From the NCBI GenBank assembly GCA_905478415.1, contig CAJQIG010000001.1, positions 8,818 to 72,817 on the forward strand: a stretch of DNA of 64,000 nucleotides, in the 5' to 3' direction. The stretch comes from an uncultured Patescibacteria group bacterium. GTDB lineage: Bacteria > Patescibacteriota > Microgenomatia > UBA1400 > PJMF01. The position numbers and the translations under genes were made by a program. The notes under the pieces are model-generated. The model made no database searches, had not been told where the DNA came from, and worked only from the letters and a program-made list of their open reading frames with translations. Shown here one piece after another: positions 822 through 36,256 of the stretch; positions within the stretch are counted from its first letter, which is position 1, and each line of letters starts with the position of its first letter.

Positions 822-1020
822 CAAAAGCTTGTATTAACGCTGGTTCAATGTTGAACTGAGGGTATGCAAAACTCTCGAGAAAAAAAACGATGTGAGCCCA
901 TTGTCCCTCAGTTGGAACACCTCTTCAAGAGCATTTTACATACATACTCCAGACTAAAAGAGCTTGGATTTACCTATTTTGATGGAACCGTGAGTATAAT
1001 TGAAACGGAAGGAGATTCTC

Positions 1021-1494
1021 ATGACTAGTTTGAGTGGTAAAAATGAGGGGAAATTTATTTCTCATTTATTCGATGAGAAATCGTTCTATTCTTCTTTTCT
1101 TTCTGATTTAGAAGACTGTGAGCATGAAGTAATAATTGAGAGTCCATTTATATCTAAGTCTCGAATGGATGTCCTTCTGCCCTTCTTCAGGCGATTGGTG
1201 AATCGAGATGTGACTGTGTACGTAATAACTAAAGACCCAAGCATTCTTGATGAACCATTAGCTTCGTATTCTCGAGAGATCATTCGAGAGTTTGAGATGT
1301 TGGGTGTGCATGTTTTGGCTACTGCAAATCACCACCACAGAAAGCTGGCTATTTTGGATAGGCAGGTTTTATGGGAAGGAAGTTTAAACATTCTTTCGCA
1401 ATCGAATAGCAGAGAAATTATGAGAAGAATCCAGGGCGAAGAACATGCACAAGAGATGTTTGAGTTCTTAAAACTTGGCAGATTTATAGAATAG
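1021..1494 (+). CDS. PLD-family (single HKD) nuclease, Nuc-like
   Basis: HxK(x4)D motif in HHHRKLAILD followed by the GSxN element (EGSLNILSQSN). ATG at 1021 is preceded by a GGAGG RBS; the track ORF begins at a TTG at 1000. Confidence 0.65.
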   Translation: MTSLSGKNEGKFISHLFDEKSFYSSFLSDLEDCEHEVIIESPFISKSRMDVLLPFFRRLVNRDVTVYVITKDPSILDEPLASYSREIIREFEMLGVHVLATANHHHRKLAILDRQVLWEGSLNILSQSNSREIMRRIQGEEHAQEMFEFLKLGRFIE

Positions 1495-1522
1495 CAAGTA
1501 TGCGTTACAATACAGGCAGATT

Positions 1523-1747
1523 ATGACAAAGAAAAACACTGGTTACCAGATTAACGAAAAAGATATAGAGGCTACCCTAAAATATCTGAAATTGAATGGT
1601 GAGCTTGAAGCTACCCGTGAAGATGCAATTCAATATCTTGAAGAACATCAAGTAATGGCACATGTAGCGGCACACAAGATTGTTGAGGATGAACAACTCG
1701 CTATAGCACCAAAAAAGGAAGTAAAAAAGCTAGAGTCAGGTGACTAA
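1523..1747 (+). CDS. hypothetical acidic 74-aa protein
   Basis: ORF only; no recognisable motif. Confidence 0.25.
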   Translation: MTKKNTGYQINEKDIEATLKYLKLNGELEATREDAIQYLEEHQVMAHVAAHKIVEDEQLAIAPKKEVKKLESGD

Positions 1748-1950
1748 AAATCCAGAATATCAGAAGATCTAACTTTTAAAGCTTTGGCAATATCTTTAAG
1801 CACCTCCAGAGAAGGATTTTCTTCATCACGCTCTATGCGAGCATAATAATTTGAGCTAATCTTTGCTCTCTCAGCCAACTCAACCTGAGTGAGTTGTTTT
1901 TCTTTTCGTAGTTTTTTAAGGTTTTTTCCTATTTTTGTTTTTGGTGGCAT
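1744..1950 (-). CDS. XRE-family helix-turn-helix transcriptional regulator
   Basis: LKKLRKEKQLTQVELAERAKISSNYYARIERDEENPSLEVLKDIAKAL is the classical Cro/C1 HTH pattern. Confidence 0.7.
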   Translation of the reverse strand: MPPKTKIGKNLKKLRKEKQLTQVELAERAKISSNYYARIERDEENPSLEVLKDIAKALKVRSSDILDF

Positions 1951-1958
1951 AGTAGTAT

Positions 1959-3749
1959 TTATTTATTCCAAATGTGAATTTTTTTAACTAGTTCATTTAT
2001 TTTTTTATTCAAGTCAGTACCTTTTTCAAAGGTCTCTTTGTTAATGTGTTTGATTAATTGATTTGCAGCATCAACTTTAATATAGGAAGTTGAAAGATTG
2101 CTTATCTTGGTATATTTACTCATACCTTGAATATTTAAAATAGATTCAAAAGTTTCTGATGGTACGTAGTTTTCAATTTCTCTACCTTGAGTTACCCAGA
2201 CCATTGCATTATCACTGAGGTTATTTATTTCAGAACGAATTCTTTCTTTGGTTGCATTGATTTTGTCTGTTTCTTTTGTTTTGTCGCTATCGATAATTAC
2301 AGCAATATTTCTATTTAGTTTAACAAGATTAATGAAATCACTAACCTCTTCATTTTGATCTGCGGTAACTTGCGCTGATAAATGACTGAGTAGTTTACCG
2401 CCATAAAACATGATGCTGTAGTGAATGCCTTCTTTTAAAGATTCATCTTTTAGATTAATCCAGTGATTAATTAAAATTCTGTCTGACGGACCTTCTACCC
2501 AAATTATTCCGTTTGTTTGTAATATGTCGCTAGCTTTTACCCCAAGATCATCTAATACGGACTGAAGAATCTTTTCATCAGCTTTGTTAATATTTGTTAA
2601 GCCATTATTTGTAAATACTCTGTAAATGCTACTGCTTTCATCTGTAAATGAGTTAATAAGAACACTAGAGTGCGAACTTATCAAATATTGGTGATCGGTT
2701 TTATCTCTCAAAAAATCAATAAGTCTTCTTTGCATTATTGGATCTAAATGTACTTCTGGTTCCTCAAGAGAAATCAATGAGTTATTTGGTGAATATAGAA
2801 TATCAACTACTAGCACAATTAATTCTTCAACACTTGAACCCCATGATTTATATGACATTATTTGACCATCAACATCTTTTTTGGGCTCTATTAGTAGGTG
2901 AGATTTATCATTTGGAATTACGATTTCTACTTCAATATCAAGCAGATCAGAAATAAACTGGTTGAGAATTTTATATTTTTTTCTGTGTTGTTGATATGAA
3001 TTTTTTGGGGAACTCCAGTCAGAAATCATATCAATTACTCTACTTCCATTGAAGTCTAGCTGGTTGATAATGCGACTTGCTGTGTTCCCATCATCCTTGT
3101 CTGATGTTCCGCCAATTTTTCTGACAGCTTTTATCATCCTCATTTGATTATGAAATGCCTTGAGTTGATTTAGCATTACCCAGAGGTAATTAAATTTTCC
3201 AGATCTAGTGCCTGAAAATTTTCCATAATCATCATTAAATTGTGACTCATTGAATGAACCAACGGCTTGTCTGAAAACTTTTTTATGAGTGGAAATTAAT
3301 GGTGTATCATTCCAAATTAACTCATTTAGGTTGAAGTGGAGTTGATTTTCGTTTTCGATACCAACGCTTATAGCGAGAGTTATTAAGTTCCTATCATTAT
3401 TAAAAAGCTCTGCTTGGAAAGTTTTATTTTCTCCAGAAAAGCCTGATAGAAGTTGCTCCTTTTCATCATCAGAAAAGGAGAATGATATTGAGAAATCAAG
3501 GCTTTTATCTGTGTTAAAAAAGTCTTCTACACTAGAGTGTGAGTTATTTATGCTAGGAGTAATTGAACCAGATAATGATGGAATCTTTCTAAGAATATCT
3601 GAAATAAAAGGCACTATTCTAATTATGTTAGATTTTCCAGCATTATTTTCTCCAATGAATAAATTAAATCGTTGAAGATCATTAAGTTCAAGATGTGCAT
3701 TAGAACTTATACTCCTAAAATTTCTAATTTTTATGTTTGTTACTTTCAT
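1959..3749 (-). CDS. OLD-family ATP-dependent endonuclease (N-terminal ABC-type ATPase, C-terminal Toprim); solo, class-1-like
   Basis: Walker A LFIGENNAGKSNI just after the N-terminal IKIRNFRSI; Walker B/D-loop LISLEEPEVHLDP; H-loop SSHS; Toprim IIWVEGPSDRIL, DxD IAVIIDSDKT, EIENY. 596 aa, similar in size to P2 Old. Confidence 0.7.
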   Translation of the reverse strand: MKVTNIKIRNFRSISSNAHLELNDLQRFNLFIGENNAGKSNIIRIVPFISDILRKIPSLSGSITPSINNSHSSVEDFFNTDKSLDFSISFSFSDDEKEQLLSGFSGENKTFQAELFNNDRNLITLAISVGIENENQLHFNLNELIWNDTPLISTHKKVFRQAVGSFNESQFNDDYGKFSGTRSGKFNYLWVMLNQLKAFHNQMRMIKAVRKIGGTSDKDDGNTASRIINQLDFNGSRVIDMISDWSSPKNSYQQHRKKYKILNQFISDLLDIEVEIVIPNDKSHLLIEPKKDVDGQIMSYKSWGSSVEELIVLVVDILYSPNNSLISLEEPEVHLDPIMQRRLIDFLRDKTDHQYLISSHSSVLINSFTDESSSIYRVFTNNGLTNINKADEKILQSVLDDLGVKASDILQTNGIIWVEGPSDRILINHWINLKDESLKEGIHYSIMFYGGKLLSHLSAQVTADQNEEVSDFINLVKLNRNIAVIIDSDKTKETDKINATKERIRSEINNLSDNAMVWVTQGREIENYVPSETFESILNIQGMSKYTKISNLSTSYIKVDAANQLIKHINKETFEKGTDLNKKINELVKKIHIWNK

Positions 3750-3773
3750 TAATTGTATTGTATCAATATAGTG

Positions 3774-4391
3774 TTAGTTTGTACCTTGTAATATAGTTTT
3801 CGGATTCACAGGTATTCCATACACCCTTATTTCAAAGTGCAAATGAGGACCTGTAGACCATCCAGTACTTCCCATTTCTCCGATTGAATCAGTCACTTTT
3901 ACTTCCTGTCCTTCATAAACTGTAATTCGATTGAGATGAGCGTATACAGATGTAATATTGTCTCCATGATCAATAATTACGTGTTTTCCATATCCCCAAA
4001 AAATCTCGCCAGCATAAGTTATAGTCCCATCCATAAAGGGTGATATTTTATCTCCCACTTTGCCCTGTGAGTTGGCAATATCTATTCCTGCATGAAACTT
4101 TTGGTAACCACTAGATTTAGCAAACTCAAGTGTAGTTACACCCTGAACAGGCCAAGTAACTTTTTTTGATACTTCTTTAACAACAGATCCGTCTGCAGGG
4201 TTTTTTATTTGAATAGTCTGTGTTTCGGGTTCAACATCTATCAGTGCGTCTGAGACAATGTTGATACCTGTGTGCATCAGAATAACTACTGCAATTATTG
4301 GCAGAGATATTAAAACCAAAAATGAAAACGCTACAAACTGCAGTTCTCGTCTAAAAGACCAAATGGTGTGAGCGGTAAGTACTGCATGCAT
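3774..4391 (-). CDS. M23 family metallopeptidase (LytM-like), membrane-anchored; probable T4SS cell-wall hydrolase
   Basis: N-terminal TM segment; HAGIDIA ... HLHFEIR zinc-binding motifs of M23 peptidases; sits in the T4SS operon. Confidence 0.75.
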   Translation of the reverse strand: MHAVLTAHTIWSFRRELQFVAFSFLVLISLPIIAVVILMHTGINIVSDALIDVEPETQTIQIKNPADGSVVKEVSKKVTWPVQGVTTLEFAKSSGYQKFHAGIDIANSQGKVGDKISPFMDGTITYAGEIFWGYGKHVIIDHGDNITSVYAHLNRITVYEGQEVKVTDSIGEMGSTGWSTGPHLHFEIRVYGIPVNPKTILQGTN

Positions 4392-6206
4392 CTACAAATA
4401 TAAATCTTTCGGATCAGTGGTTAACATTGGATGTTCTTTTTCTGAGGCTACTATTTTGACTGCAACATGATTTTGATCAGCTATGATCAGTGCCTCACCT
4501 CGATCACAAGTGAGCAAGAATTGTTGTTCGTATTCACTCAAGTTAAATTCCTGCACTACTTTTTTGATTGATGTAGTATCCTGCTTCATTAGAATTCTCA
4601 ACGATGATTGAGATGCAATTGCTCTGCCATATTCTTGATTTAAAAAGTCATTAGCTTGCTGGGAAATAAGTGTGACTCCTAAGTAGTGTTTACGAGCACG
4701 TCTGACTAGTCCTGCCAAAAACCTCGCACTCTCTTCATGTTGTAAAAGCAGCCAAGCTTCATCAATGACGAGAATTCTTTTCTGAGGATTTGATTTCACT
4801 TCTGAGTGCACGAAGTTAGCGGTAACCAGAATCATAATTTGCCTGAGTGACTCATCCAAGTCTTTAATATCAAAAATGACTAAGCGGTTGGAAAGATCCA
4901 CATTCGTTTGTGAATCAAAAACACTGGAAAGTGAGCCAGACACAAACTTATCCAGCCTGTGACACAGCTCTTTTTGTTTCATTTTCTTAAGCACTTTATA
5001 GAAGTCTTTGAGTAGTGGGAATTTCTGATCTGCTTCGTAGTTTCGTTTTCGCATGCTGATACCAAACTGTTTGTAGGTTTCAATCAAAGCTTTATCGACT
5101 ACAGCTCGTTCTTCGTCAGTCAGTGACCTTGCCATTAGAGAAATAATTTCAGTCAGATCTTGAATATGTTCAGCCAATCCATTTTGACCTGTAAATGATT
5201 TGAGTGAAAAATCAAAAGGGTTAATTTTTTCTTTGGAGGTAGCAGATAGCCTGATATAGGTACCTTTAACTGATTTTGCTAGCTGTTTGTATTCCCGCTC
5301 TGGATCGATGACAATGACTTTGGTTTGTTGCATCAGTTGTCTTAAAATCTCGACTTTTGCAGTATAGCTTTTACCTGAACCTGACTGAGCAAAAATAATA
5401 GAGTTAGCATTGTTGAGTGAAAAGCGATCTACTATTACCAGCGAGTTATTCGACTTGTTAATGCCATACAAAATACCAGACTCTTGCACTAGTTCTGATG
5501 AAACAAATGGAAAAGTTAGTGCAGCACTAGAGCTATCTAGGTTTCGTTTTTGATTCAATTGGTTTTCACCACGTGGCAAGATGGATTGCAAACCTTCAAG
5601 TTGTTGGAAGGTGGCAGTTTTGATGTAAAACATTCTAGAAGCCATGATGGTTTCAATTACTTGAGTTGTTTTATTAAGCTCTTCCAAACTGTCAGCACTC
5701 AACGTCATATAGATGGAAATTTGAAACAGTTTTTCTTGTCCTCTTTGAATTTTGTCCTTAAGCTCCATAGCAGATTCAAGCGGATCAGTAATTTCAGATC
5801 CAATTACTTTTCCTGCCTTGAGCATGCTTCGTTTAGTTGACTCAAGCTCGGTGATTTTACGATTTAATTTTGGCAATGCCATCAGAGGATCAACATGCTC
5901 AATATGATAAGAGATATCTAGGTCATGGTTGAAGTTGATCAACATATTCAGCCAACCAACATTAGCAACATATGGGTAGCCAGAGATAAACAGCGTTCGT
6001 ACAAACGTATCACCTATTTGTAGGTAGGTTGATTCTTCCATCAGACCTGAGTAAGAAATTAAATCAACCTGATCTTGTTCTCCAAAACTAAACTGAAGTG
6101 AAAGGCGTTCCCTTCGGTTTTTCTCCTGTTGGGTTTTAAACTTTCGAACCTTTTTTCGTTTCCATTTTTGTAAGTTGTGGTAGTGGGTTTGAACATTGTT
6201 AAACAT
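4392..6206 (-). CDS. virB4: VirB4/TrbE/TraE-family conjugal transfer ATPase, C-terminal ATPase part
   Basis: Walker A IIFAQSGSGKSYTAKV, Walker B VIDEAWLLL; length and order typical of VirB4. The N-terminal domain is encoded by the overlapping upstream ORF. Confidence 0.8.
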   Translation of the reverse strand: MFNNVQTHYHNLQKWKRKKVRKFKTQQEKNRRERLSLQFSFGEQDQVDLISYSGLMEESTYLQIGDTFVRTLFISGYPYVANVGWLNMLINFNHDLDISYHIEHVDPLMALPKLNRKITELESTKRSMLKAGKVIGSEITDPLESAMELKDKIQRGQEKLFQISIYMTLSADSLEELNKTTQVIETIMASRMFYIKTATFQQLEGLQSILPRGENQLNQKRNLDSSSAALTFPFVSSELVQESGILYGINKSNNSLVIVDRFSLNNANSIIFAQSGSGKSYTAKVEILRQLMQQTKVIVIDPEREYKQLAKSVKGTYIRLSATSKEKINPFDFSLKSFTGQNGLAEHIQDLTEIISLMARSLTDEERAVVDKALIETYKQFGISMRKRNYEADQKFPLLKDFYKVLKKMKQKELCHRLDKFVSGSLSSVFDSQTNVDLSNRLVIFDIKDLDESLRQIMILVTANFVHSEVKSNPQKRILVIDEAWLLLQHEESARFLAGLVRRARKHYLGVTLISQQANDFLNQEYGRAIASQSSLRILMKQDTTSIKKVVQEFNLSEYEQQFLLTCDRGEALIIADQNHVAVKIVASEKEHPMLTTDPKDLYL

Positions 6207-6819
6207 AATTGTGCTGTAGTATTGCTTTCATAGTAGTACTGGTTAATTCTTGAGTTTTTATCTGGCCTTTGTTGTAGAAGCTATAAAAGAGATGGAGGAC
6301 TTCTAAACTATCAAGCTTTCTGGCTTTCATCCCAAGTTTTTCTAGAGCTTTAATTACCATATCTTGAGTTAAATTGAGTTGAGCCTGTGCAAGCTCAAAG
6401 GTATTGCCTTTGGTTTCTGGTTTGTAAGGTAGGACGATGTAAAACCTTCGAGATAGAATTTTGTTGCCAGATACAAGCTGGCGAATAAACTGGGTGTAAT
6501 CACTAATTTGTTCTAGATATTGCTTCTCATTTTCTGTTTCCTTGAGTAAGTCGATGGAATCAACGTATTGATCAATATCCACTTCACGAATACGAATCAA
6601 TATTTGTAGTTGGGAAGGTAGTGAGTTTAGAAATGTTTGAAAGCTATCAATCAACACATCCTGTTCGGCTTCACTCTTGAGTTCGAAGTTAACTGAGGAC
6701 GTTTCAATAACTAGTCGATGCTCGTTGTTTGGTAAAACCAAAATCCCGTCACGCACTTCTTTGATGGCAATTTGGTTTCGAGAGCTAACTTTATTAAGAG
6801 ATTTTTTCAAAGGCCACAT
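6199..6819 (-). CDS. VirB4 N-terminal domain encoded as a separate ORF (split or frameshifted virB4)
   Basis: IAIKEVRDGILVLPNNEHRLVIETSSVNFELKSEAEQDVLIDSFQTFLNSLPSQLQILIR matches the conserved N-terminal region of VirB4/PrgJ/TrsE. Overlaps the ATPase ORF by 8 nt (ATGTTTAA). Confidence 0.55.
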   Translation of the reverse strand: MWPLKKSLNKVSSRNQIAIKEVRDGILVLPNNEHRLVIETSSVNFELKSEAEQDVLIDSFQTFLNSLPSQLQILIRIREVDIDQYVDSIDLLKETENEKQYLEQISDYTQFIRQLVSGNKILSRRFYIVLPYKPETKGNTFELAQAQLNLTQDMVIKALEKLGMKARKLDSLEVLHLFYSFYNKGQIKTQELTSTTMKAILQHNYV

Positions 6820-7300
6820 TGAGTCCTCCTTTCTTGCCAGAACGATAGGTTAGATTGAAATCAGTTTTTTCTAGAAGATGGCGTAGTTTCAGTACATCTT
6901 TAATATCAGGTGTAGCAAGGTATTTTTGTACTTCTTTTTCAAGCTGTTCCTGTTTAACAGTTACTGTTTGAACTTCTGGCTTTATTATTTCTCGATTAGT
7001 TGCTGAATTCTTGTTGTAGATGTAATACTTTGGCCTTGCGTTGTATCGAATCAATATGCTAAGCCAACTGGCGATGATTCTGCCTTTGACTCTGACAGCA
7101 AGCGTGATGCTTAAAACAGCAAAGATGCACGTTAGAACAAGCTTATAGATAACAAAAGTCATGGTAGGTGGTAGGAAAGCGTAGATAAATGTTGCAATCA
7201 AGACTGGCATGAGTAGAAGCATGATTTGTGTCAGACTAAAGTTGCCTGCAATCTTATCTTCTACTGTAGTTATTTGAGCTGGTATGACTTGACTTCTCAT
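6794..7300 (-). CDS. VirB3-like small membrane protein
   Basis: 168 aa with hydrophobic segments, immediately upstream of virB4 as in Gram-positive and minimal T4SS. Confidence 0.4.
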   Translation of the reverse strand: MRSQVIPAQITTVEDKIAGNFSLTQIMLLLMPVLIATFIYAFLPPTMTFVIYKLVLTCIFAVLSITLAVRVKGRIIASWLSILIRYNARPKYYIYNKNSATNREIIKPEVQTVTVKQEQLEKEVQKYLATPDIKDVLKLRHLLEKTDFNLTYRSGKKGGLNVAFEKIS

Positions 7301-8598
7301 ATGTTTACTACCTTCTTTGATACTTTGGCCGCTGCATTCTGAGCTTGTGCCCTGCTGGCAGTTGCAGCGTTATCTGTAGTCATCACGTTAATAATTTGGT
7401 TCCCGAGTTTTTTCATTGCTCCCGAGTTAGCGGTGTACATGACCATCTGCATCATGAGATTTGGAGTTTTGAGTAAGGTGATAAAAAGTCCGATTCCCAC
7501 TGCTATTGAAATGATCGAGTTTTCACTATGGTCTGGAAGAGTCAAAAACGAGCTAGCTAATTGAATTATCACCACATGGACAAAAACAATAAAAATACTG
7601 ACAAGATACGTTTTTATGGCAATCAAGGCAAAGTCTGAAAATTTAGGTAGGGCTGAAAGTAAGAAAATAAAAGGTGACAAAACTGCTCCAAGGGAAATAA
7701 AGATCAAACGGCTGATGTACATAAGCAGTAGCACTATTGAGACAATTAAAAACAGCACCATGAAGATCAAAATTATCAGGGGTGTAGTTCCAGAAATGAC
7801 TGCTGTTGGATTAAAAGCAGCTTCAATCCATGCATGGTTCAGTCCTCCTGTTGAATCTAAGATAACTTTCACCAACATATTGCAGGTGATAATGGCGTAG
7901 TCTGCTAGGAAGAGTGAGATGTTAGTGGCTAAGAAAGTTAGCCCAAGTCTTGGGAGAAGTTGTTTGAGCTCCACTTCTTCAAAACCAAACGAACTTGCAC
8001 TCATAACTTGTAAGCCCATCAGAGCCACTACCAAGATAAATAAAGCGTCCACAATACCGACTGAAATAAACCAAAAATTACGAACCACCTCATTGTCTAA
8101 AAGTGTTGGCGTGGTTGTTAAATACCCAAGCACTCCATTGACAATTGGTTCAGTAGAGCTTTCAACAATGTTTTGGATAAAGCCACCTATGGCATCAATT
8201 AAAACTTGAGTGAGTCCTTCGGATGGTTCAACTGTTTCAATGCTGACAATATCAATCGGTGTGCCAGACCCAGAGGTATTTTGAGAATTCAAAGCATGTT
8301 GGAATACAGAAGTAACCACGTTTGCAGCTAAAACCAAAGTTAAACCAATGACAGCATTGCGAATAGTCTTCTTGGCAGATTCAAGAACTTCGGGTTTTCC
8401 AGCTGAGGTGATGTAGAGATACCCTGCTTTAACTAAAAAAAAGACCGCTGATGCGGTCGCGATTAGAGTGATGATTTGTAATGTACTATTTGTGTATTCT
8501 ATGACATCGGGATTGGTTGATTGAGCAAAAACAGGAGAACTAAACAAAAGGAAAGCAAGTGCGGTTGTTCCAATAGTTGTTAGTACTCTTCTCATCAA
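7297..8598 (-). CDS. VirB6/TrbL-like polytopic membrane protein with N-terminal signal peptide and a pilin-like domain
   Basis: Signal peptide ...SPVFAQS. Residues about 40-95 are paralogous to the adjacent 113-aa pilin (GYLYITSAGKPEVLESAKKTIRNAVIGLTLVLAA vs GYITSSGNPEALEKSKKTILYSAVGLTLVLGA). At least 6 further TM segments, glycine-rich. Confidence 0.55.
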   Translation of the reverse strand: MMRRVLTTIGTTALAFLLFSSPVFAQSTNPDVIEYTNSTLQIITLIATASAVFFLVKAGYLYITSAGKPEVLESAKKTIRNAVIGLTLVLAANVVTSVFQHALNSQNTSGSGTPIDIVSIETVEPSEGLTQVLIDAIGGFIQNIVESSTEPIVNGVLGYLTTTPTLLDNEVVRNFWFISVGIVDALFILVVALMGLQVMSASSFGFEEVELKQLLPRLGLTFLATNISLFLADYAIITCNMLVKVILDSTGGLNHAWIEAAFNPTAVISGTTPLIILIFMVLFLIVSIVLLLMYISRLIFISLGAVLSPFIFLLSALPKFSDFALIAIKTYLVSIFIVFVHVVIIQLASSFLTLPDHSENSIISIAVGIGLFITLLKTPNLMMQMVMYTANSGAMKKLGNQIINVMTTDNAATASRAQAQNAAAKVSKKVVNI

Positions 8599-8620
8599 TA
8601 CGTATTCCTTTTCTAATCAA

Positions 8621-8962
8621 TTACATTCCAGATCCAAATGCAGTGGTTGCGACTTGGCTTACCATATTTGAAATAACAAACGCACCAAGTACTAAAGTAA
8701 GTCCGACTGCGGAGTACAGAATAGTTTTTTTGGATTTTTCTAATGCTTCTGGATTTCCTGAGCTCGTAATGTAACCGACACCACCCCAGACGATGAAGCC
8801 TGCTGCTATAAAGCCAGACAAGGTGACCATGATCTGAATCACTTCTTGGATAAAAGATTGAATTTGTCCCACTTCAGCCGACTGAGCAAAGACTGGATTA
8901 GCCACGACTAAGGAAGTAAGAAATATGCTTTGGAGAACTATGAGTTTTTTCATAAACACCAC
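8621..8962 (-). CDS. VirB2/TrbC-like pilin
   Basis: 113 aa, signal peptide ending VFAQS, two hydrophobic helices, conserved SSGNPEALEKSKK motif as in T4SS pilins of Gram-positive/minimal systems. Confidence 0.5.
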   Translation of the reverse strand: MVFMKKLIVLQSIFLTSLVVANPVFAQSAEVGQIQSFIQEVIQIMVTLSGFIAAGFIVWGGVGYITSSGNPEALEKSKKTILYSAVGLTLVLGAFVISNMVSQVATTAFGSGM

Positions 8963-9216
8963 CCTTTCACTAATTAAAGTATGTTGGGCAGGTGTTACAA
9001 AAAAAGCTACCTCACTAGTGGGCAGCTCTTGTTATAACGCTTTACTTTTGGTTGTAAATTGTATCAGATTATATCAGTAGTCTGGTGTATATCAAGAGAG
9101 AAATGTGATTTTGATATCCCGTAACTCTTGAGGTTGTACTATAATGGTGATTGTTAACCGAGATTTTTATATGAATCTTAATAATATATTTAGTCAAGAA
9201 AACAGAAAGCACAATT

Positions 9217-10794
9217 ATGTCTGGAGAACAAAAACGATTACTTGAAAAACAACTTTGGGCTGTAGCCAATGTTCTCCGGGGAAAAATGAATGCAGACGAA
9301 TATAAAAACTATATTCTTGGCTTCATTTTCTACAAATATCTTTCAGAAAAACTTGCTCGCTATATTGACGAAAAACTTCTGGCTAGTGAAAAATTCTCTT
9401 TTGCAGAGGTAGACGACTCAACTGACGAAGGTCAACATATTGTTGAGCATATTAAGAAAGCTACCATTGATCACTTGGGCTTTTTCCTCAAACCTACAGA
9501 GCTTTTTTCTTATATTGTCAGAAAAGGTAATGGCGAGATTAAAGGCCATGATACTTTTATTTTAGAAAACCTCAAAAATGTTCTTAACTCTATTGAGCAA
9601 ACCTCAATGGGCACAGCGAGTGAAGATGATTTTAAGGGACTATTTGATGACGTTGATTTAACATCCACAAAACTTGGTAAGTCAGAGAACAAAAAGAACG
9701 AGGTGATTGTTGAGGTTCTTACTTTGCTCAGTGGTATTGATTTTAAACTAGAAGACACCAAAAGTGATTTGCTCGGTGATGCTTATGAATATCTTATCGG
9801 TGAATTCGCAGCAGGAGCAGGCAAAAAAGGTGGTGAATTTTATACACCAGCTCAAGTTTCAAGACTTCTTGCAAAGATTGTGACCCATGGCAAAAAACGA
9901 GTTAAATCTGTTTATGACCCAACCTGTGGTTCTGGCTCTCTTCTTCTAAGAATTGGTGAGTATGCCGATGTTGTTTCCTACTATGGACAAGAACTTAACC
10001 CAACCACATATAACCTTGCTCGCATGAACATGATATTGCATGGGGTGCACTTTGATCATTTCAGCATTCGAAATGGAGATACCCTCGAAGATGACATGCA
10101 TTTAGACTTACAAGCAGAAGCAGTGGTGGCTAATCCTCCTTTTTCTGCAGACTGGAAAGGCGATAAAGATCCGACTCTAGCTCATGATGAAAGATTTGCT
10201 CAGTATGGAAGACTTGCTCCAAAAGGTAAGGCTGATTACGCATTTGTAACTCACATGCTTCACCATCTTTCAGATAGTGGAACAATGGCAGTGGTGCTAC
10301 CACATGGTGCACTGTTCAGAAGTGGCGCCGAAGGTACAATTCGAAAATATATTATTGAGAAGCAAAACTACCTTGATGCCGTCATAGGTTTGCCAGAAAA
10401 TCTTTTTTATGGAACAGGTATTCCAACTACAGTTTTAGTATTCAAAAAATGCAGACAGGAAGATGATGAAGTTTTGTTTATTGATGCATCCAATGGGTTT
10501 CAGAAGGTAGGTAATCAAAATCAGCTTAATGAGGAGCATCTAGAAAAGATATTTCAAACATATGTAAATAGGAAAGAAGTTGATAAATACTCTCACAGAG
10601 CAAGCTTAGAAGAAATTGTGGAGAATGACTACAATTTAAATATTCCTAGATATGTGGACACTTTTGAGCAAGACGATCCTGTTGACTTGGATTCAGTTTC
10701 AAATGAACTGAAATCTTTGCAGGAAGATGAGGAGAAATTAAAAAAAGATATTACTGACTTTTGCAGAAAATTAGGAATAGAAAAACCTTATTAA
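9217..10794 (+). CDS. hsdM: type I restriction-modification system, N6-adenine DNA methyltransferase subunit
   Basis: N-terminal HsdM domain, NPPF catalytic motif (VVANPPFSADW), AdoMet motif DPTCGSGSLLL. Confidence 0.9.
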   Translation: MSGEQKRLLEKQLWAVANVLRGKMNADEYKNYILGFIFYKYLSEKLARYIDEKLLASEKFSFAEVDDSTDEGQHIVEHIKKATIDHLGFFLKPTELFSYIVRKGNGEIKGHDTFILENLKNVLNSIEQTSMGTASEDDFKGLFDDVDLTSTKLGKSENKKNEVIVEVLTLLSGIDFKLEDTKSDLLGDAYEYLIGEFAAGAGKKGGEFYTPAQVSRLLAKIVTHGKKRVKSVYDPTCGSGSLLLRIGEYADVVSYYGQELNPTTYNLARMNMILHGVHFDHFSIRNGDTLEDDMHLDLQAEAVVANPPFSADWKGDKDPTLAHDERFAQYGRLAPKGKADYAFVTHMLHHLSDSGTMAVVLPHGALFRSGAEGTIRKYIIEKQNYLDAVIGLPENLFYGTGIPTTVLVFKKCRQEDDEVLFIDASNGFQKVGNQNQLNEEHLEKIFQTYVNRKEVDKYSHRASLEEIVENDYNLNIPRYVDTFEQDDPVDLDSVSNELKSLQEDEEKLKKDITDFCRKLGIEKPY

Positions 10795-12039
10795 ATGAAC
10801 AATAATTTCAACATAAAACCCTTATTTCCTCAGCTAAGATTTCCAGAATTCAAAGACCCTTGGCAAAAAAAACAACTTAGCGAAGTTGGAACTGTAGTTT
10901 CAGGTCTGACATACAAACCTTCTGATGTGGTAGATGATGGTATTTTAGTATTAAGGTCTTCAAATATCAGGAAGGCTAAACTTTCTTTCAAAGATAATGT
11001 TTATGTTAATCCCAAAACTGTTTCGTTTAATGCAGTAATGGAAAGCGATATACTAATTTGCGTTCGTAATGGCAGCAAGAGATTAATAGGGAAAAATGCT
11101 TTAGTCGATAAAAATGCTGAAGGATCAGCATTTGGGGCTTTTATGAGCGTATTTAGAAGTGAATCAAATAAATTTATCTTCCAACTTTTTAATTCAGATA
11201 CTTATAAGAAACAAGTTCACAGAAATTTAGGTGCAACCATTAACTCTATTAACGGCAGTGATTTAAAAAAATTCACTTTCGGTTTTCCATCAAAAGATGA
11301 GCAGGAAAAAATTGCTTCATTCCTCGCTTCTGTAGATAATTGGATTGAAAATTTAGAGAAGCAAAAAAACTCGCTTGAGGAATATAAAAAAGGAATTATG
11401 CAAAAAATCTTTTCTCAAGAGATAAGATTTAAGGATAAAAATGGGTGTGAGTACCCTGAATGGAAAAAAATCAAGCTTAGAAAGCTGTCAAAAGTAATTA
11501 CTAAGGGTACAACACCAACTAGTTTAGGTTTTTCATACCTAAAAGAAGGTGTTAATTTCATTAAGGCAGAAAACATTAATCAATACTCAGAAATTTCTAT
11601 TTCAGAAACAATGAAGGTCTCGTCTGAATGTAATCAAGCTTTAAGTAGATCATCTTTGGAAGAAAATGACATTCTATTTTCAATTGCAGGTACTTTGGGT
11701 CGTACGGCGATAGTGAAAAAAAAGGACCTTCCAGCTAACACCAATCAGGCTTTAGCAGTTATTAGATTGAATAGCACTGTAGATGTTTTCTTCATAGAAA
11801 AATTTTTAAATTCTCAAATGATTGAAAAATATATTTTACAAATGCTTTCAGTAGGTGCTCAACCAAATCTATCATTAAAACAAGTTGGAAATATTGAAGT
11901 CAACTTACCATCAATAAAAGAGCAAATGCAAATTGCTTCATTTCTATTTTCAATTGAGAATTTAGTCGAATCAAAAAGCAAGCAAATTACAAAAGCAAAA
12001 GAGTGGAAAAAAGGACTGTTACAACAAATGTTTGTATAG
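10795..12039 (+). CDS. hsdS: type I restriction-modification system, specificity subunit
   Basis: Two target-recognition domains separated by a conserved central helix (LEEYKKGIMQKIF) and a C-terminal repeat (AKEWKKGLLQQMF). ATG directly follows the hsdM stop. Confidence 0.85.
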   Translation: MNNNFNIKPLFPQLRFPEFKDPWQKKQLSEVGTVVSGLTYKPSDVVDDGILVLRSSNIRKAKLSFKDNVYVNPKTVSFNAVMESDILICVRNGSKRLIGKNALVDKNAEGSAFGAFMSVFRSESNKFIFQLFNSDTYKKQVHRNLGATINSINGSDLKKFTFGFPSKDEQEKIASFLASVDNWIENLEKQKNSLEEYKKGIMQKIFSQEIRFKDKNGCEYPEWKKIKLRKLSKVITKGTTPTSLGFSYLKEGVNFIKAENINQYSEISISETMKVSSECNQALSRSSLEENDILFSIAGTLGRTAIVKKKDLPANTNQALAVIRLNSTVDVFFIEKFLNSQMIEKYILQMLSVGAQPNLSLKQVGNIEVNLPSIKEQMQIASFLFSIENLVESKSKQITKAKEWKKGLLQQMFV

Positions 12040-12048
12040 ATAAAAGAT

Positions 12049-14844
12049 ATGGCACAATCAGAACTACAACTAGAAAATGAATTAATAGCACAACTTGGAA
12101 ACTTGGGTTTTGATAGGGTTTCTTTGCCAGATGTTGAATCACTAAATCATAACCTTAAATCACAACTAGAAAAGTTTAATAAAACAACTTTTTCAGATAC
12201 AGAATTCTCTCGCATACTCAATCACCTAGAAAAAGGTGATCGCTTTGTAAAAGCTAAGACTCTGCGTGATAGATTTGTGTTGACTCGAGATGACGAAACA
12301 AAGTTCTGGGTGCGATTTTTCAACATGGATAAGTGGTGTAAAAATGAGTATCAAGTTACCAATCAGGTTACGCAAGCTGGAAGGTATGAAAATCGTTATG
12401 ACGTTACTCTTCTCATAAATGGTCTTCCTTTAGTTCAAATTGAACTCAAGCGCCGTGGCGTTGAAATGAAAGAAGCTTTCAATCAGATTCAACGTTATCA
12501 CAAGCATTCTTTCTCTGGAACCCTATTCGAATATGTCCAGATTTTTATCATTTCCAATGGTGTAAATACAAAATACTTTTCTAATAATCCAAAACAATCA
12601 TTTGAACAAACCTTCTATTGGACAGATGAGGAAAACAAAAAGATCACTCAGCTCAATGAATTTGCAGAAGTATTTTTAGAGAAATGCAAAATCTCAGCCA
12701 TGATAGCTGAATATATTGTGTTACATGAATCACTAAAAATTCCAATGGTACTCCGCCCTTATCAGTACTATGCAGTCAGAGCTATTGAGCAAAAGGTTAA
12801 AGAAACTAACCAGAATGGCTATATTTGGCATACCACTGGTTCTGGAAAAACCTTGACTTCATACAAAGCCAGTCAGATTCTTTCACAGTTACCCGAAATT
12901 AAAAAAGTTATCTTTGTAGTTGATCGCAAAGACCTCGATATCCAAACAACAAAAGAGTTTAATCATTTTTCTGATGGTTCTGTTGATGGCACAGATAATA
13001 CTCGCAACTTAGTAAAACAACTCAAAGATCCTAATAGAAAACTCATCGTTACAACAATTCAAAAGCTAGATATTGCTGTTTCCAGAGAATCGTATCTTAA
13101 ACAATTTGAAGATCTTCAAGATGAAAAAGTAGTCATTATTTTTGATGAATGTCACCGTAGTCAGTTTGGATTAACCCACAATAGAATAAAGAGCCATTTT
13201 AATAAAGCCCAGCTCTTTGGATTTACTGGAACACCTATCTTCGCTGATAACAATGTTGGTGGGGTTACAACAAAAGATGTTTTTGGTGAATGCTTGCACC
13301 GCTACATTATTACCCACGCTATTGATGACAATAATGTGCTTGGCTTTGCAGTTGAGTATGTAGGTAAGTACAAGAAAAAAGACCCTGACACGCTAGATGC
13401 TGATATTTTTGCCGAAACAATGGTTGAAGGAATAGACACTAAAGAAGTTCTTGAAAGTGATGAGCGAATTCAAAAAATAGCTGAGTATATTCTTCATGAT
13501 TGGAGGCGTAAAACAAAGAATGGCAAGTTTAATGCTCTTTTTTGCACTCCAAGCATTGAGGTATTAAAGACATACTACACGCTACTTTCTGCTAAGAAAC
13601 CTAAAGATTTTAAAATCGCTACAATTTTTACCCACCAAGCAAATGAGGATGGTAGTGCAGATATGCTTGATGTTGACGTGTTTGCTGATAAGGATGATTC
13701 GTTAAATCAGCATTCAAGAGACTTCTTAGAAAGCTGTATCAAAAACTACAACAAAGATTTTGGCACTAATTACTCTACTGACCGATTCTATGATTATTAT
13801 CGAGATCTACAGAAAAGAATTAAAAACAAAGAAGTTGATCTAACTATTGTGGTGAACATGTTCTTAACTGGATTTGATAGCCCGAGACTTAACACTTTGT
13901 ACGTTGACAAGAATTTACGTTACCACGGATTAATCCAAGCATATTCTAGAACCAATCGTTTATTAAATTCTGATAAGCCTCATGGAAACATCGTTTCCTT
14001 TAGAAACCTTAAACTGAATACTGACAAAGCTCTGGCTTTGTTTGGTGATGAAAATGCTAAAGAAGTTGTTTTCAAAAAACCATATGAGGTTCAGAAAAAG
14101 GAATTTGAAGAAAAGCTTGCTCACTTACGAGTAAAAGTACCCACTGTTTCTTCAGTTGATGATTTGCGAGGTGAAGAAGATAAGGCTGCTTTTGTTAAAA
14201 GTTTTAGAGATTTGCTTCGTATTAAGTCATCATTAGAAACCTTTGCAGAATTCTCTTTTGATGACTTGGGAATTACAGAACAAGAATTTTATGATTACCA
14301 AAGTAAGTATCTTGATATTCATGAAGAAAGAAAAACTCACGAACCAGAAAAAGAATCTATACTTGATCAAATCGACTTTGAGTTGGAATTAACTGTTCGC
14401 GATGTAGTTGATTTTGATTACATTATTCAGTTGATTGCTGGACTTAAAGACATTAGCTCTGATGTGGTTCGTGAGAAGAAGACTGAAGATATCCTTAGAT
14501 TATTTGATCGCGATGTGAAACTTCGTAAAAAGAAAGAACTCATCCGTAAATTTATTGAAGAGAACCTACCTAAAATTAGAGAAGATGAAAATGTTGAAGA
14601 AGCCTTTGAGAAATTCTGGGCAAGTGAACGCTCATCTGCTCTGCGAGAAGTAGCACAAGCTGAAAATATTCCACTAGAAAAGTTTGAAAACATTATTGGC
14701 GAGTATCTATACACACAAAAACTCCCACATGGACAAGATATTGTTGATCTTCTCCCAGAAGCTCCAAGAATTCTTGAGCGCCAAAGTATTATAGATCGCG
14801 TGAGGAGTGCTATTGAGAATATTGTAGATATGTTTGAGTGGTAG
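12049..14844 (+). CDS. hsdR: type I restriction enzyme, endonuclease/helicase subunit
   Basis: Walker A HTTGSGKTLT, DEAH-box FDECHRS, 931 aa, downstream of hsdMS. Confidence 0.9.
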   Translation: MAQSELQLENELIAQLGNLGFDRVSLPDVESLNHNLKSQLEKFNKTTFSDTEFSRILNHLEKGDRFVKAKTLRDRFVLTRDDETKFWVRFFNMDKWCKNEYQVTNQVTQAGRYENRYDVTLLINGLPLVQIELKRRGVEMKEAFNQIQRYHKHSFSGTLFEYVQIFIISNGVNTKYFSNNPKQSFEQTFYWTDEENKKITQLNEFAEVFLEKCKISAMIAEYIVLHESLKIPMVLRPYQYYAVRAIEQKVKETNQNGYIWHTTGSGKTLTSYKASQILSQLPEIKKVIFVVDRKDLDIQTTKEFNHFSDGSVDGTDNTRNLVKQLKDPNRKLIVTTIQKLDIAVSRESYLKQFEDLQDEKVVIIFDECHRSQFGLTHNRIKSHFNKAQLFGFTGTPIFADNNVGGVTTKDVFGECLHRYIITHAIDDNNVLGFAVEYVGKYKKKDPDTLDADIFAETMVEGIDTKEVLESDERIQKIAEYILHDWRRKTKNGKFNALFCTPSIEVLKTYYTLLSAKKPKDFKIATIFTHQANEDGSADMLDVDVFADKDDSLNQHSRDFLESCIKNYNKDFGTNYSTDRFYDYYRDLQKRIKNKEVDLTIVVNMFLTGFDSPRLNTLYVDKNLRYHGLIQAYSRTNRLLNSDKPHGNIVSFRNLKLNTDKALALFGDENAKEVVFKKPYEVQKKEFEEKLAHLRVKVPTVSSVDDLRGEEDKAAFVKSFRDLLRIKSSLETFAEFSFDDLGITEQEFYDYQSKYLDIHEERKTHEPEKESILDQIDFELELTVRDVVDFDYIIQLIAGLKDISSDVVREKKTEDILRLFDRDVKLRKKKELIRKFIEENLPKIREDENVEEAFEKFWASERSSALREVAQAENIPLEKFENIIGEYLYTQKLPHGQDIVDLLPEAPRILERQSIIDRVRSAIENIVDMFEW

Positions 14845-14857
14845 TAAGGGAAAAAGA

Positions 14858-17116
14858 ATGTATATATCAAGGGTTTACATAAGGAACTATCGCAATTTTG
14901 AAGAGTTTGATTTATTTATTCCTGATGGAAGTCCTTTAACCATTATCGGTGGAAATAATTGTGGAAAAACTAATTTTCTCCAAGCCATCAGGCTTGTTTT
15001 AGATTCTGGCATAGCTCCTTGGGACAAAAGACTTACAGAAGAAGATTTTTGTTGGAGTATAGGTGAAGAACCTTGGAAAAGCGGCGAGCAAATTGTTATC
15101 ACAGTAACTTTTAGCAATGTTACTGATAAAGAGGAAATACAATCACTATTGCACTCAATTGCTCCTGTGTATGACGAGGAGAGTGTTTTGTCTTCTAAAT
15201 CTGCAGATAGTCTGGAAGCTAATATTTCATTTGTGTTTGCACCATCTACCTTGAACAAGGAAGGCGACTATGACCTGATCGAGGACTACATTAGTTTTCT
15301 AGTTGCTGGTCGGTATCATCCTTCTGGATATTATTACCTACCAGACGGTAGTACTAAGGAATATGGTGATACGGTTATTTCTGGCTTATATTCTTGTCCT
15401 AGTAAAGAGGAGTTCTACAAGTATTTTTATTTGTCAGAAGACAATATTAAAAAACTCGAGGATGATTCGTCAGCCACATTTGAAAAGCAACTTGCTAAAC
15501 AGTCGTATCCTAACAAGGTGCGAAAACACATTAATTTACTTGCTCTAGATGCTCTTAGGGATGTCAAAAACGACTTTTACTTCGGTTATCGTTCTTTAGT
15601 GTCACAACTAATCAGAGGCGGCATAAAAAATAGTAAAAAAAACCAGATATCCAAAGAGGTGTCTGCTGCTTTTAAGAACCTTAGAACAAGCGGAGCTATT
15701 CCTGAAGCTAACACCATTCTGGATGATATAGAAACAAGACTACAGAACAAAGACATAAATCTTTTGTCAGATAAAGCAGACTTAATTATTGGTACTCCCA
15801 GAGTCACTCTTGAGAATATCGGTCGCTATTTCAATTTCCTAGTTAATCTTAAGGAAGATTTGAAAAGCGACCAGGACATGGAGACCATTGGTCTTGGTTA
15901 TCAGAACCTTGCGTATATTTCTGCCATTTTTGCCCTTTTTGAACTGAAGAAGGAACTTTCTTTAAATGATACCGATGAGAAAATTCGTATTGTATATAAT
16001 CTGCTACTGATCGAAGAACCAGAAGCACATCTGGATGTTCAAAATCAAAAGTATCTTCATACTCAAATCGAAAACAAGACGCAGAAATTGATGGAAGTGA
16101 AAGCGGCCGATGATGATGAAACTGAGGGTGAAGATGCTCCACAGTTTTTTGCATTTACTCAAGTAATTCAAACTTCTCACTCAACTCACTTAGCTTCCAA
16201 ATCTGACTTAAAAAATCTTGTTGTATTACAAAAAGGTGTCAATCAAGCAAGAGCTATAAACATTGATAGTGTATTACGACTTGATGATGACACATACAGC
16301 CACAATAGGAGAATATTAAAACAGTATCTTGATGCTACAAGGTCTTCATTACTCTTTGCAAGAAAAGTAGTTTTAGTTGAAGGACTCTCTGAAAAATATT
16401 CAGTAGGTACCCTTATTAACACGCATTTAAAGCAACAACGTCCTGAGAGCAATGTTGACATCGATAGCGAAGGAATTGAGGTTGTTGAGGTGGGTGGAAA
16501 GATCTTTGAGCCATTTAATGCCCTTTTTCAGAATGACCAATCTATTGGGCTTAACAACAAATGCTTGAATCTCCGAGATGGAGATTCTCATTTAGAGTCT
16601 CAAGTAGTCGCTGATTATGAGACAAAATACAACGACCTTAATCCTTCCTCTACTACCACACCTCAGCTGGATACTAAAAAAAACATTTACACCTTTGAAA
16701 TCGACTGTTTTTTCTTACCAATACCAGAAGATATAACTAGAAATAATATTGAGTATCTCAAGCTTATTTTGTATAGGTTTATGAAGGATGGAGACTACTT
16801 CAAAACAGATGACACTTTTACAAGGAAACTAGCTGCGATTGATAGCTTTGCCCAAGAGATTGTTAATCATGGAGTAGACAAGGACAAGTTTGAGAAGTTT
16901 TTCACAGATATTCTAGGCCATGAAGTCTCTAAGCCTTCCATATCTTTATATCTGTCCTCTTTGCTGAAAGCTAAATTGCTCGAAGACGTTACTGAAATTG
17001 AAACTTGGGGTGACACTCCGGACACAGAAGTTGGCATTACACCTTTTAGTGACCTGTCTGAGTTCATCATGCCCAAGTACATCAAAGATGGAATCTCATG
17101 GCTAATTACAGACTAA
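14858..17116 (+). CDS. OLD-family ATPase-Toprim nuclease, GajA-like (Gabija / class 2 OLD)
   Basis: Walker A TIIGGNNCGKTN, D-loop LLLIEEPEAHLD, Toprim ARKVVLVEGLSEKY. ATG at 14858 with an AAGGGA RBS 13 nt after the hsdR stop; the track ORF uses a TTG at 14834. The stop overlaps the UvrD-like gene by 19 nt. Confidence 0.7.
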   Translation: MYISRVYIRNYRNFEEFDLFIPDGSPLTIIGGNNCGKTNFLQAIRLVLDSGIAPWDKRLTEEDFCWSIGEEPWKSGEQIVITVTFSNVTDKEEIQSLLHSIAPVYDEESVLSSKSADSLEANISFVFAPSTLNKEGDYDLIEDYISFLVAGRYHPSGYYYLPDGSTKEYGDTVISGLYSCPSKEEFYKYFYLSEDNIKKLEDDSSATFEKQLAKQSYPNKVRKHINLLALDALRDVKNDFYFGYRSLVSQLIRGGIKNSKKNQISKEVSAAFKNLRTSGAIPEANTILDDIETRLQNKDINLLSDKADLIIGTPRVTLENIGRYFNFLVNLKEDLKSDQDMETIGLGYQNLAYISAIFALFELKKELSLNDTDEKIRIVYNLLLIEEPEAHLDVQNQKYLHTQIENKTQKLMEVKAADDDETEGEDAPQFFAFTQVIQTSHSTHLASKSDLKNLVVLQKGVNQARAINIDSVLRLDDDTYSHNRRILKQYLDATRSSLLFARKVVLVEGLSEKYSVGTLINTHLKQQRPESNVDIDSEGIEVVEVGGKIFEPFNALFQNDQSIGLNNKCLNLRDGDSHLESQVVADYETKYNDLNPSSTTTPQLDTKKNIYTFEIDCFFLPIPEDITRNNIEYLKLILYRFMKDGDYFKTDDTFTRKLAAIDSFAQEIVNHGVDKDKFEKFFTDILGHEVSKPSISLYLSSLLKAKLLEDVTEIETWGDTPDTEVGITPFSDLSEFIMPKYIKDGISWLITD

Positions 17117-19041: not shown

Positions 19042-19066
19042 ATATTAAGTAATAAACAATCTATAT

Positions 19067-36245: not shown

Positions 36246-36256
36246 ACGATGGGGCC
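36182..36256 (-). tRNA. tRNA-Glu (anticodon TTC), CCA encoded
   Basis: Reverse complement reads GGCCCCATCGTCTATCGGTTAGGATAACAGGTTTTCATCCTGTAGAGCAGAGTTCGATTCTCTGTGGGGTCACCA, a cloverleaf with 7-bp acceptor stem, TTC anticodon and TTCGATT T-loop. Confidence 0.8.

Follow-up and report, generated by a model that had tools for sequence, protein, structure and literature searches.

An OLD-family ATPase-Toprim gene in a variable, probable defense slot behind the type IV secretion operon of Patescibacteria

OLD-family genes that stand alone are defined as Class 1 (PMC10568477); among them, Vibrio cholerae Vc OLD is a nickase that nicks plasmid DNA in vitro (PMC12392090), and P2 Old cuts tRNA (PMC12445682). 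The P2 old gene itself lies in a defense hotspot (PMC9122126), and the archaeal OLD-family protein Cran1 has a non-defense role (PMC12796447). In groundwater microbes, type IV secretion system (T4SS) genes have been mentioned, as a general remark, inside defense islands, and candidate phyla radiation (CPR) genomes are dense in defense genes (PMC12259885). The T4SS of Patescibacteria has been described as chromosomal, mostly relaxase-less by MOBscan and repurposed; a text search of that survey found no mention of defense genes, restriction or nuclease near virB4 (PMC12102498). Here we report the analysis of a 64,000-nt stretch of contig CAJQIG010000001.1 from an uncultured Patescibacteria group bacterium (the window), in which a T4SS operon is followed by a gene for an OLD-family protein, named OLD1.

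From sequence comparisons we consider it likely that OLD1 is a stand-alone Class 1-type ATPase-Toprim nuclease carried as an exchangeable defense cassette, and not a T4SS component. The cassette would occupy a precisely bounded slot between the M23 peptidase gene of the operon and a pair of genes encoding an XRE-family helix-turn-helix (HTH) regulator and a phospholipase D (PLD)-type protein (Table 1). We assigned OLD1 to a defense hotspot because homology with related loci breaks at its borders and because its relatives elsewhere have no T4SS neighbors.

The comparison was carried out on a set of 74 loci collected by a VirB4-seeded scan with one genome per species, whose VirB4 proteins were 72-98% identical; the named relatives belonged to Candidatus Shapirobacteria, Pacebacteria and other Microgenomates-group Patescibacteria. 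The slot was defined as the interval from the M23 gene to the HTH gene; both anchors were present in 37 loci, and the downstream anchors were retained in 47 related loci. The M23-to-HTH gap ranged from 25 to 7983 nt in the 37 loci with both anchors and measured 9133 nt in a locus with the HTH anchor only. Four slots were empty (L040, L046, L072 and L074), the gaps between the M23 and HTH genes at empty sites being 25, 27, 35 and 37 nt. A count of open reading frames (ORFs) of at least 80 aa in 38 anchored loci returned 92 slot ORFs, which formed 69 sequence clusters and were co-oriented with the operon in 76 cases. The slot contents comprised CBASS cyclases with 2TM/Cap15 effectors, Thoeris ThsA/ThsB, NERD, KAP NTPases, IetA/IetS, Avs2, Avs4, QatABC, Lamassu-like PDC-M68B, PDC-S39, PDC-S06, DndD/PbeC-like with DndH-like proteins, AbiEii and others, together with a type I restriction-modification (RM) system in L049 and Gabija in L062. 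With its conserved flanks, variable contents, empty sites and known systems, the M23-to-HTH interval can be classed as a defense hotspot.

An earlier reading of the window from its letters alone (the sequence-only reading) had described OLD1 as wired into the transfer operon and had asked whether the ATPase-Toprim gene is conserved in synteny with T4SS genes. In the synteny analysis L007 (69% protein identity) was, apart from the window lineage, the only one of the 47 anchored loci with OLD1 at this position. The closest loci by VirB4 identity, L013 and L015 (98%) and L066 and L073 (95%), had no OLD1 and carried other slot genes instead; Pfam and PADLOC returned no match for slot genes of the closest relatives. 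Within the window lineage, the identical OLD1 protein occurred on 22 contigs from several samples, the longest being a 584-kb scaffold, with the same arrangement in all; an identical locus is present in the ENA assemblies SOLA22 and KRUG19.

The borders of the cassette were defined by comparing the window with these relatives. Homology with L015 (89%) stopped at window position 3775, in the stop codon of the M23 gene, and resumed at 1961, in the stop codon of OLD1, with an identity of 92%. Homology with L073 and L066 extended up to position 3757, and that with L073 resumed at 1951; L007 was collinear with the window straight through OLD1. The GC content of OLD1 was 31.2%, compared with 38.4% for the T4SS operon. 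The flanks had mosaic identities, a pattern suggestive of recombination within the slot or close to it: compared with the window, L013 was 98% identical in VirB4, 94% in M23 and 57% in both HTH and PLD, and L015 was 98%, 96%, 97% and 94% identical in VirB4, M23, HTH and PLD. With lengths of no more than 24 and 8 nt, the slot junctions leave no space for direct repeats or att-like sites, and this option was rejected. Since these are too short for recombination sites and the flanks are mosaic, the cassettes may be swapped by homologous recombination within the conserved flanks.

Relatives of OLD1 were then considered outside this locus set. Homologs at 40-53% identity had no T4SS neighbors, and those located on plasmids and in other CPR genomes were also solo. 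A metagenome scan with OLD1 alone as query found nothing, and a scan with a CPR-clade alignment returned 27 relatives, none of which was beside T4SS genes. One homolog adjoined a Shedu-type gene, and a relative at 40% identity was in housekeeping surroundings.

These data bear directly on a functional link between OLD1 and the T4SS, as raised by the sequence-only reading; OLD1 might, for instance, serve in entry exclusion or as an anti-plasmid nuclease acting on DNA in the channel. Such a link could draw on the position of OLD1, which lies on the operon strand 24 nt after M23 with no predicted terminator in between, on the occurrence of type IV coupling protein (T4CP), Replic_Relax and ArdC-like genes in the window, and on the nicking of plasmid DNA by Vc OLD in vitro (PMC12392090). 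However, other loci either leave the same position empty or fill it with CBASS, Thoeris, Avs, Qat, RM or further systems, OLD1 is found there in one anchored locus besides the window, its relatives elsewhere occur outside a T4SS context, and its insertion as a cassette is marked by both GC content and homology breakpoints. We therefore regard coupling to the T4SS as very improbable and did not retain it.

The OLD1 protein was examined by profile, alignment and structure prediction. Residues 1-365 matched AAA_15, and OLD1 falls, with 30-35% identity, into a large family whose members are about 580 aa long and annotated as ATP-dependent nuclease. The profile comparison proposed by the sequence-only reading for both OLD proteins returned matches of OLD1 to the GajA, AriA and Old models of PADLOC and identified the second gene as GajA. 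The top single match was AriA of the PARIS system (8e-25), which was confined to the ATPase part (residues 1-365). The model of a fused AriAB scored 2e-15, below several GajA models, and the GajA models aligned across OLD1, through residues ~325-591. No separate AriB gene was present beside OLD1.

Conservation was judged on an alignment of 35 OLD1 homologs. In the ATPase, the invariant residues were G33-x4-G38K39S40 (Walker A), E329, E330 and H360, and in the Toprim half they were E419, G420, S422, D423, D487, D489, E524, E526, N527 and K558. The ATPase half carries the Walker A, Walker B and H-loop elements of the ABC type. The acidic residues of the Toprim set, which are retained together with K558, are those whose loss the sequence-only reading had named as evidence against its own assignment. 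An AlphaFold (AF2) model of full-length OLD1 showed a mean confidence (predicted local distance difference test, pLDDT) of 84.5, and its top fold matches were GajA (8U7I), the retron Eco8 OLD (9LPA) and Thermus OLD (6P74), with E values of about 1e-14. A separate model of the C-terminal part was closest to the C-terminal regions (CTR) of Burkholderia and Xanthomonas OLD (6NK8 and 6NJV), AriB and GajA; against the Burkholderia CTR (6NK8) the template modeling (TM) score was 0.50-0.55 with a match probability of 1.0. The model places two helices (residues ~451-478) between Toprim strands; an additional helical insert in this domain is a mark of Class 2 proteins.

According to motifs and predicted fold, OLD1 is an OLD-family ABC ATPase-Toprim protein, for which metal-dependent nuclease and ATPase activities can be predicted from the conserved residues and the fold. 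No UvrD/PcrA-like helicase, retron or AriB gene lies beside it, its neighbors being the M23 peptidase and XRE HTH genes; this gene context places OLD1 among the solo OLDs, the Class 1 type of PMC10568477. The expectation of two OLD-family proteins in the window, one class-1-like and one class-2-like, was thus borne out. A particular closeness to P2 Old was rejected, a tblastn search against phages having returned no P2-like match. By analogy with characterized Class 1 OLDs, OLD1 would dimerize through its ATPase domain and, upon a phage-derived cue, its two-metal Toprim site would cut nucleic acid. The targets might be invading or replicating DNA, as for the Vc OLD nickase, or tRNA, as for P2 Old, and the outcome would be a block of phage replication.

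Several observations weigh against the assignment of OLD1 to a nuclease cassette in a defense slot. The Pfam OLD-like_TOPRIM match was sub-threshold (E 0.006), and when the C-terminal 205 residues were compared as a sequence profile with PDB, the matches were at chance level, with no solved OLD structure among them; because these two results are weak, the Toprim assignment rests on motifs, GajA hidden Markov model alignments and predicted folds. A phmmer search of OLD1 against PDB sequences also gave no match. The loci all derive from one scan, so the frequencies given here are rough. Some slot genes have non-defense annotations (ZnuA/ABC-3 zinc transporter, YibE_F, TatD), and many lack a Pfam or PADLOC match. 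The HTH genes of the window and L007 abut OLD1 and have no TATAAT box of their own, a box being present in most other loci. Finally, OLD1 homologs of 49-53% identity occur among tRNA synthetase, ribosomal and chaperonin genes, which would fit a non-defense role too.

The last point could indicate that OLD1 is a housekeeping ATPase for DNA maintenance or the cell cycle, RecF/SMC-like or Cran1-like, with an accidental T4SS neighborhood. The SMC_N and RecF models do match the OLD1 N-terminus, weakly, and Cran1 provides a precedent for an OLD-family protein without a defense role (PMC12796447). Nevertheless, OLD1 is patchy in distribution, being absent from the very loci closest to the window by VirB4, the other occupants of its slot are defense systems, its full Toprim catalytic set is conserved and its GC content is low relative to the flanks. 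A housekeeping function hence appears highly unlikely, and OLD1 is better accounted for as a defense cassette.

The sequences at the operon and slot boundaries were inspected for expression signals; the promoter-like sites described here are consensus matches alone, and their function as promoters is presumed. The strongest site lies upstream of the pilin gene and matches the consensus at 11 of 12 positions plus TG. No terminator-like site was predicted between M23, OLD1 and HTH genes. In the junction ahead of OLD1 a -10-like motif is formed by TG (3765-3764) and TACAAT (3762-3757), the hexamer ending 7 nt before the ATG, and no Shine-Dalgarno-like sequence was visible at 3750-3773. The window, L007, L066 and L073 have the conserved motif TATATTGATA(C/T)AAT directly past the M23 stop codon. 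A TA(T/C)AAT box located 4-12 nt before the start codon was found for the HTH gene in 18 of 40 cases and for the first cargo gene in 12 of 35, compared with 1 of 181 internal operon genes, and the boxes at the slot often read TGnTATAAT. This distribution suggests leaderless-type promoters at the slot. OLD1, whose own box would fit a leaderless-type start, might be read either with the T4SS operon or from just behind it, with likely read-through into the HTH gene. As the HTH gene lacks a box of its own and abuts OLD1, the two genes are probably co-transcribed in the window and L007.

Such an arrangement raises the possibility that OLD1 and the downstream XRE gene constitute a dedicated two-gene module, with the XRE protein keeping a toxic nuclease in check as its regulator or antitoxin; OLD1 would then not be truly solo. 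The short gap (8 nt in the window and 12 nt in L007), the missing TATAAT box and the resemblance of the HTH protein to capH, C-protein and antitoxin-type XRE models are consistent with it. Yet the HTH gene is a conserved anchor that accompanies every kind of cargo and is present in empty slots, while other OLD1 homologs have no adjacent HTH gene. A dedicated module is therefore unlikely, and the HTH gene is best considered as a border of the slot occupied by the OLD1 cassette.

The features of the window are collected in Table 1. On the minus strand, from 8962 to 1744, eight densely packed ORFs were recognized. The order stated by the sequence-only reading, with OLD1 following pilin, VirB6, VirB3, VirB4 and M23 genes on the same strand and an XRE gene behind it, was confirmed, except that VirB4 is split in two and that VirB6 is a tentative assignment. 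The order pilin, VirB6-like, PrgI, VirB4N, VirB4C and M23 was kept in nearly all 74 loci, with median gaps among the six genes of -26 to +25 nt (n=55-73), and M23 followed VirB4 in 73 loci. The 8-nt overlap between the two VirB4 ORFs was maintained in 67 loci, and this conservation indicates that the split is natural and not a frameshift. The T4SS_pilin domain scored 8e-10 and 1e-10 in the VirB6-like and pilin genes, with TrbC at 6e-08. In the VirB6-like protein this domain spans residues 36-99, and the weak CD3337/EF1877 match concerns the C-terminal part.

Table 1. Coordinates of the annotated features in the 64,000-nt window; functional names are predictions from profile matches and sequence.
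Feature	Position	Strand	Evidence and remarks
PLDc_2 single-HKD protein	1021-1494	+	PLDc_2 3e-09; outer anchor, conserved
Small ORF, 74 aa	1523-1747	+	Downstream of PLD gene; convergent with HTH gene, 4-nt overlap
XRE/HTH_3 regulator, 68 aa	1744-1950	-	HTH_3 5e-16; right slot anchor
OLD1, 596 aa, ABC ATPase and C-terminal Toprim plus helical region	1959-3749	-	AAA_15 4e-22; slot cargo
Left slot junction with extended -10-like motif	3750-3773	-	Read from sequence
M23 peptidase, presumed T4SS cell-wall hydrolase	3774-4391	-	Peptidase_M23 1e-30; left slot anchor
VirB4 ATPase, 604 aa	4392-6206	-	CD1110-family VirB4 2e-111, model positions 144-733
TrsD-like VirB4 N-terminal piece, 206 aa	6199-6819	-	CD1110-family VirB4 1e-13, model positions 11-178
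PrgI/VirB3	6794-7300	-	PrgI 4e-06
Membrane protein with pilin domain, 433 aa, tentatively VirB6-like	7297-8598	-	T4SS_pilin; CD3337/EF1877 weak match
VirB2-like pilin	8621-8962	-	T4SS_pilin
Promoter-like site upstream of pilin gene	9068-9095	-	TTGATA-16-TATAAT
Second swapped defense block	9147-19075	+	Pfam, PADLOC, L073 comparison
Type I RM hsdM/S/R	9217-14844	+	Pfam and PADLOC
GajA (OLD)	14834/14858-17116	+	PADLOC 2e-64; OLD-like_TOPRIM 4e-10
GajB (UvrD-like helicase)	17098-19041	+	PADLOC 2e-50
DUF2779/Cas4-like protein, 503 aa	19067-20578	+	
GmrSD_N and Schlafen/AlbA_2 fusion, 749 aa	20609-22858	+	
DUF2726 gene	23230-23685	-	
ArdC-N-like	28627-29412	+	
Replic_Relax (PF13814)	29377-30144	-	1.5e-14
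T4CP-like, 877 aa	31654-34287	-	TrwB_AAD_bind 7e-10, TraG-D_C 2e-05
Large serine recombinase	34518-36245	+	3' end overlaps tRNA-Glu
tRNA-Glu	36182-36256	-	

Beyond the slot, the HTH gene starts 8 nt past the OLD1 stop codon, and an HTH gene follows the slot in 40 related loci. The PLD gene is convergent with the operon and, in 33 of 37 loci, separated from the HTH gene by 188-426 nt; its description as divergent by the sequence-only reading was incorrect, the two transcription units facing each other 3' end to 3' end. The encoded protein (157 aa) is MkoC/DrmC-like in PADLOC and does contain, as claimed, a single HKD motif, with one intact HxK(x)4D(x)6GSxN element (HHRKLAILDRQVLWEGSLN; HHRKLAILD...WEGSLN). 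It shares this single motif with the periplasmic plasmid nuclease Nuc, which has a secretion signal, and differs from it in that no hydrophobic N-terminal segment was visible by eye. The 74-aa ORF between PLD and HTH genes had no Pfam, PADLOC or NCBIfam match and has homologs in 15 related loci.

A number of slots of relatives contained cargo with no annotation. These were single ORFs in L015 (2334-3176, 281 aa), L073 (12461-13396, 312 aa), L014 (4923-7127, 735 aa), L070 (3277-5730, 818 aa) and L082 (9634-12006, 791 aa), and five small ORFs in L013 (12560-15841). The unannotated slot genes are candidates for undescribed defense genes. A 616-aa slot protein of L037 (12417-14267), initially taken for a second OLD1, was rejected since only 43 N-terminal residues are common; it is a different ABC ATPase with a C-terminal Toprim-like EGVSD...VIDDD motif and represents a second, unrelated cargo of the ATPase-Toprim type. 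In L007, the place of the RM genes of the window, upstream of the pilin gene, is taken by a diversity-generating retroelement (RVT_1 and bAvd, 2651-4462), and a 523-aa serine recombinase (12977-14548) comes right after the PLD gene.

A second variable block was recognized on the other side of the operon. L073 is collinear with the window over 22859-19076 and 9146-3757, and these two stretches are separated in L073 by about 3 kb of different DNA; because collinearity breaks at these points, the hsdMSR and GajAB genes (9147-19075) can be defined as a second precisely swapped insert, located between the promoter region of the pilin gene and the DUF2779 gene. The DUF2779/Cas4-like and GmrSD_N/Schlafen pair next to it, which are further defense-type genes, is kept in L073, with 83% and 91% identity. 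Compared with L013, HsdR is 98% and HsdM 86% identical and HsdS only 30%, which indicates a swap of the specificity subunit. The genes at 14834-19041, which overlap each other by 19 nt, are by sequence a standard Gabija pair. The UvrD-like partner noted by the sequence-only reading for the larger OLD gene was therefore verified, but the view of this gene as a paralog of OLD1 was not: OLD1 and GajA of the window have almost no sequence in common except for P-loop and signature-motif similarity, so they are not recent paralogs. An hhalign comparison of the OLD1 family profile with the window GajA aligned the N-terminal ~100 residues and was uninformative for the Toprim part. The occurrence of two OLD-family genes together is what two defense hotspots would give, with no special pairing.

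Finally, we considered whether the left ~1-36 kb of the window might be an integrative conjugative element (ICE) with the slot as its cargo region, a reading compatible with OLD1 being a defense cassette. The serine recombinase adjoins tRNA-Glu, and T4CP-like, Replic_Relax and ArdC-N-like genes are all present together with the T4SS, a backbone that is ICE-like. At least 12 relatives have T4CP and Replic_Relax genes in the same order, 0.6-6.7 kb upstream of pilin, the distance in the window being 20.4 kb. A serine recombinase lies beside the PLD gene in L016 and L045, as in L007, and the mean GC content of the region is 36.2%, versus 39.6% for the rest of the window. On the other side, a search found neither a tRNA-Glu-derived direct repeat or other element end nor an empty site, the cluster is found in dozens of species on chromosome-sized contigs, and the published survey describes these systems as chromosomal, mostly without relaxase and repurposed (PMC12102498). 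The term conjugative element used by the sequence-only reading goes further than these data: the window encodes VirB4 and a T4CP-like protein, a Replic_Relax protein as putative relaxase and a large serine recombinase, and no element boundaries were found. On balance an ICE is a possible but doubtful interpretation. Replic_Relax is outside the MOB classes screened in PMC12102498 and is a candidate for the missing relaxase of the Patescibacteria T4SS.

A more speculative reading, which we judge improbable, is that the placement of the slot is functional. The T4SS would then be a channel through which the epibiont and other cells exchange DNA or cell contents, the cassettes would be co-expressed with it from the conserved promoter-like junction under the XRE regulator and would police entry, and this channel together with recombination in the flanks would refill the slot. 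If this were true, the unannotated slot genes, for instance those of L013, L014, L015, L070, L073 and L082, would be new defense systems.

Solo OLD genes, Gabija and defense hotspots are all already known. For a bounded slot at the 3' end of the Patescibacteria T4SS operon, with a second variable block upstream, no description was found in the literature searched. OLD1 adds a further member to the little-studied solo OLD nucleases, and the locus is the more useful result, as it offers a genomic handle for cataloging and discovering immune genes in a nearly uncultivated phylum, whose genomes are tiny yet reportedly high in defense-gene density (PMC12259885). The handle is anchored by T4SS genes that are highly conserved across dozens of Patescibacteria species. 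The case of OLD1 also corrects an over-reading, since proximity to a secretion operon does not imply membership in it, and the synteny of T4CP and Replic_Relax genes with the operon bears on whether the Patescibacteria T4SS still moves DNA.

Among described systems, OLD1 can be compared with the Class 1 OLDs, namely P2 Old, Thermus scotoductus OLD (6P74) and Vc OLD. Like them it is encoded by one gene and lacks a partner of the helicase, retron or AriB kind, and it is predicted to have an N-terminal ABC ATPase with an inserted domain and the Toprim E...D...DxD...E set with a conserved lysine. The predicted fold matches that of the Thermus protein, to which the sequence similarity is very low, and OLD1 differs from the whole group in its Patescibacterium host as well as in its very low sequence similarity. 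As with P2 old, its location is a hotspot that holds other defense systems in related elements (PMC10568477, PMC9122126). With Gabija it shares the ATPase-Toprim architecture of GajA, but it has no UvrD-like partner and is 164 aa shorter than the GajA of the window.

The T4SS operon resembles the MPF-FATA-like systems of Patescibacteria (PMC12102498) in its separate TrsD-like protein, PrgI/VirB3, VirB2-like pilins, peptidase downstream of virB4 and chromosomal context. That survey screened relaxases by MOBscan only, whereas Replic_Relax and T4CP genes were here found syntenic with the operon in several genomes. As for the slot, conserved flanks, sharp bounds, varied systems, unannotated genes and empty sites are the same features displayed by the hotspots of P2/P4 (PMC9122126) and of genomic islands (PMC10121019, PMC12629846). 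The Patescibacteria slot differs from these mobile-element hotspots in that its anchors are the last gene of the T4SS operon and the XRE/PLD pair, with no integrase or att site at the slot, and in that most of the cargo is co-oriented with the operon and has -10-like boxes a few nucleotides from the start codon.

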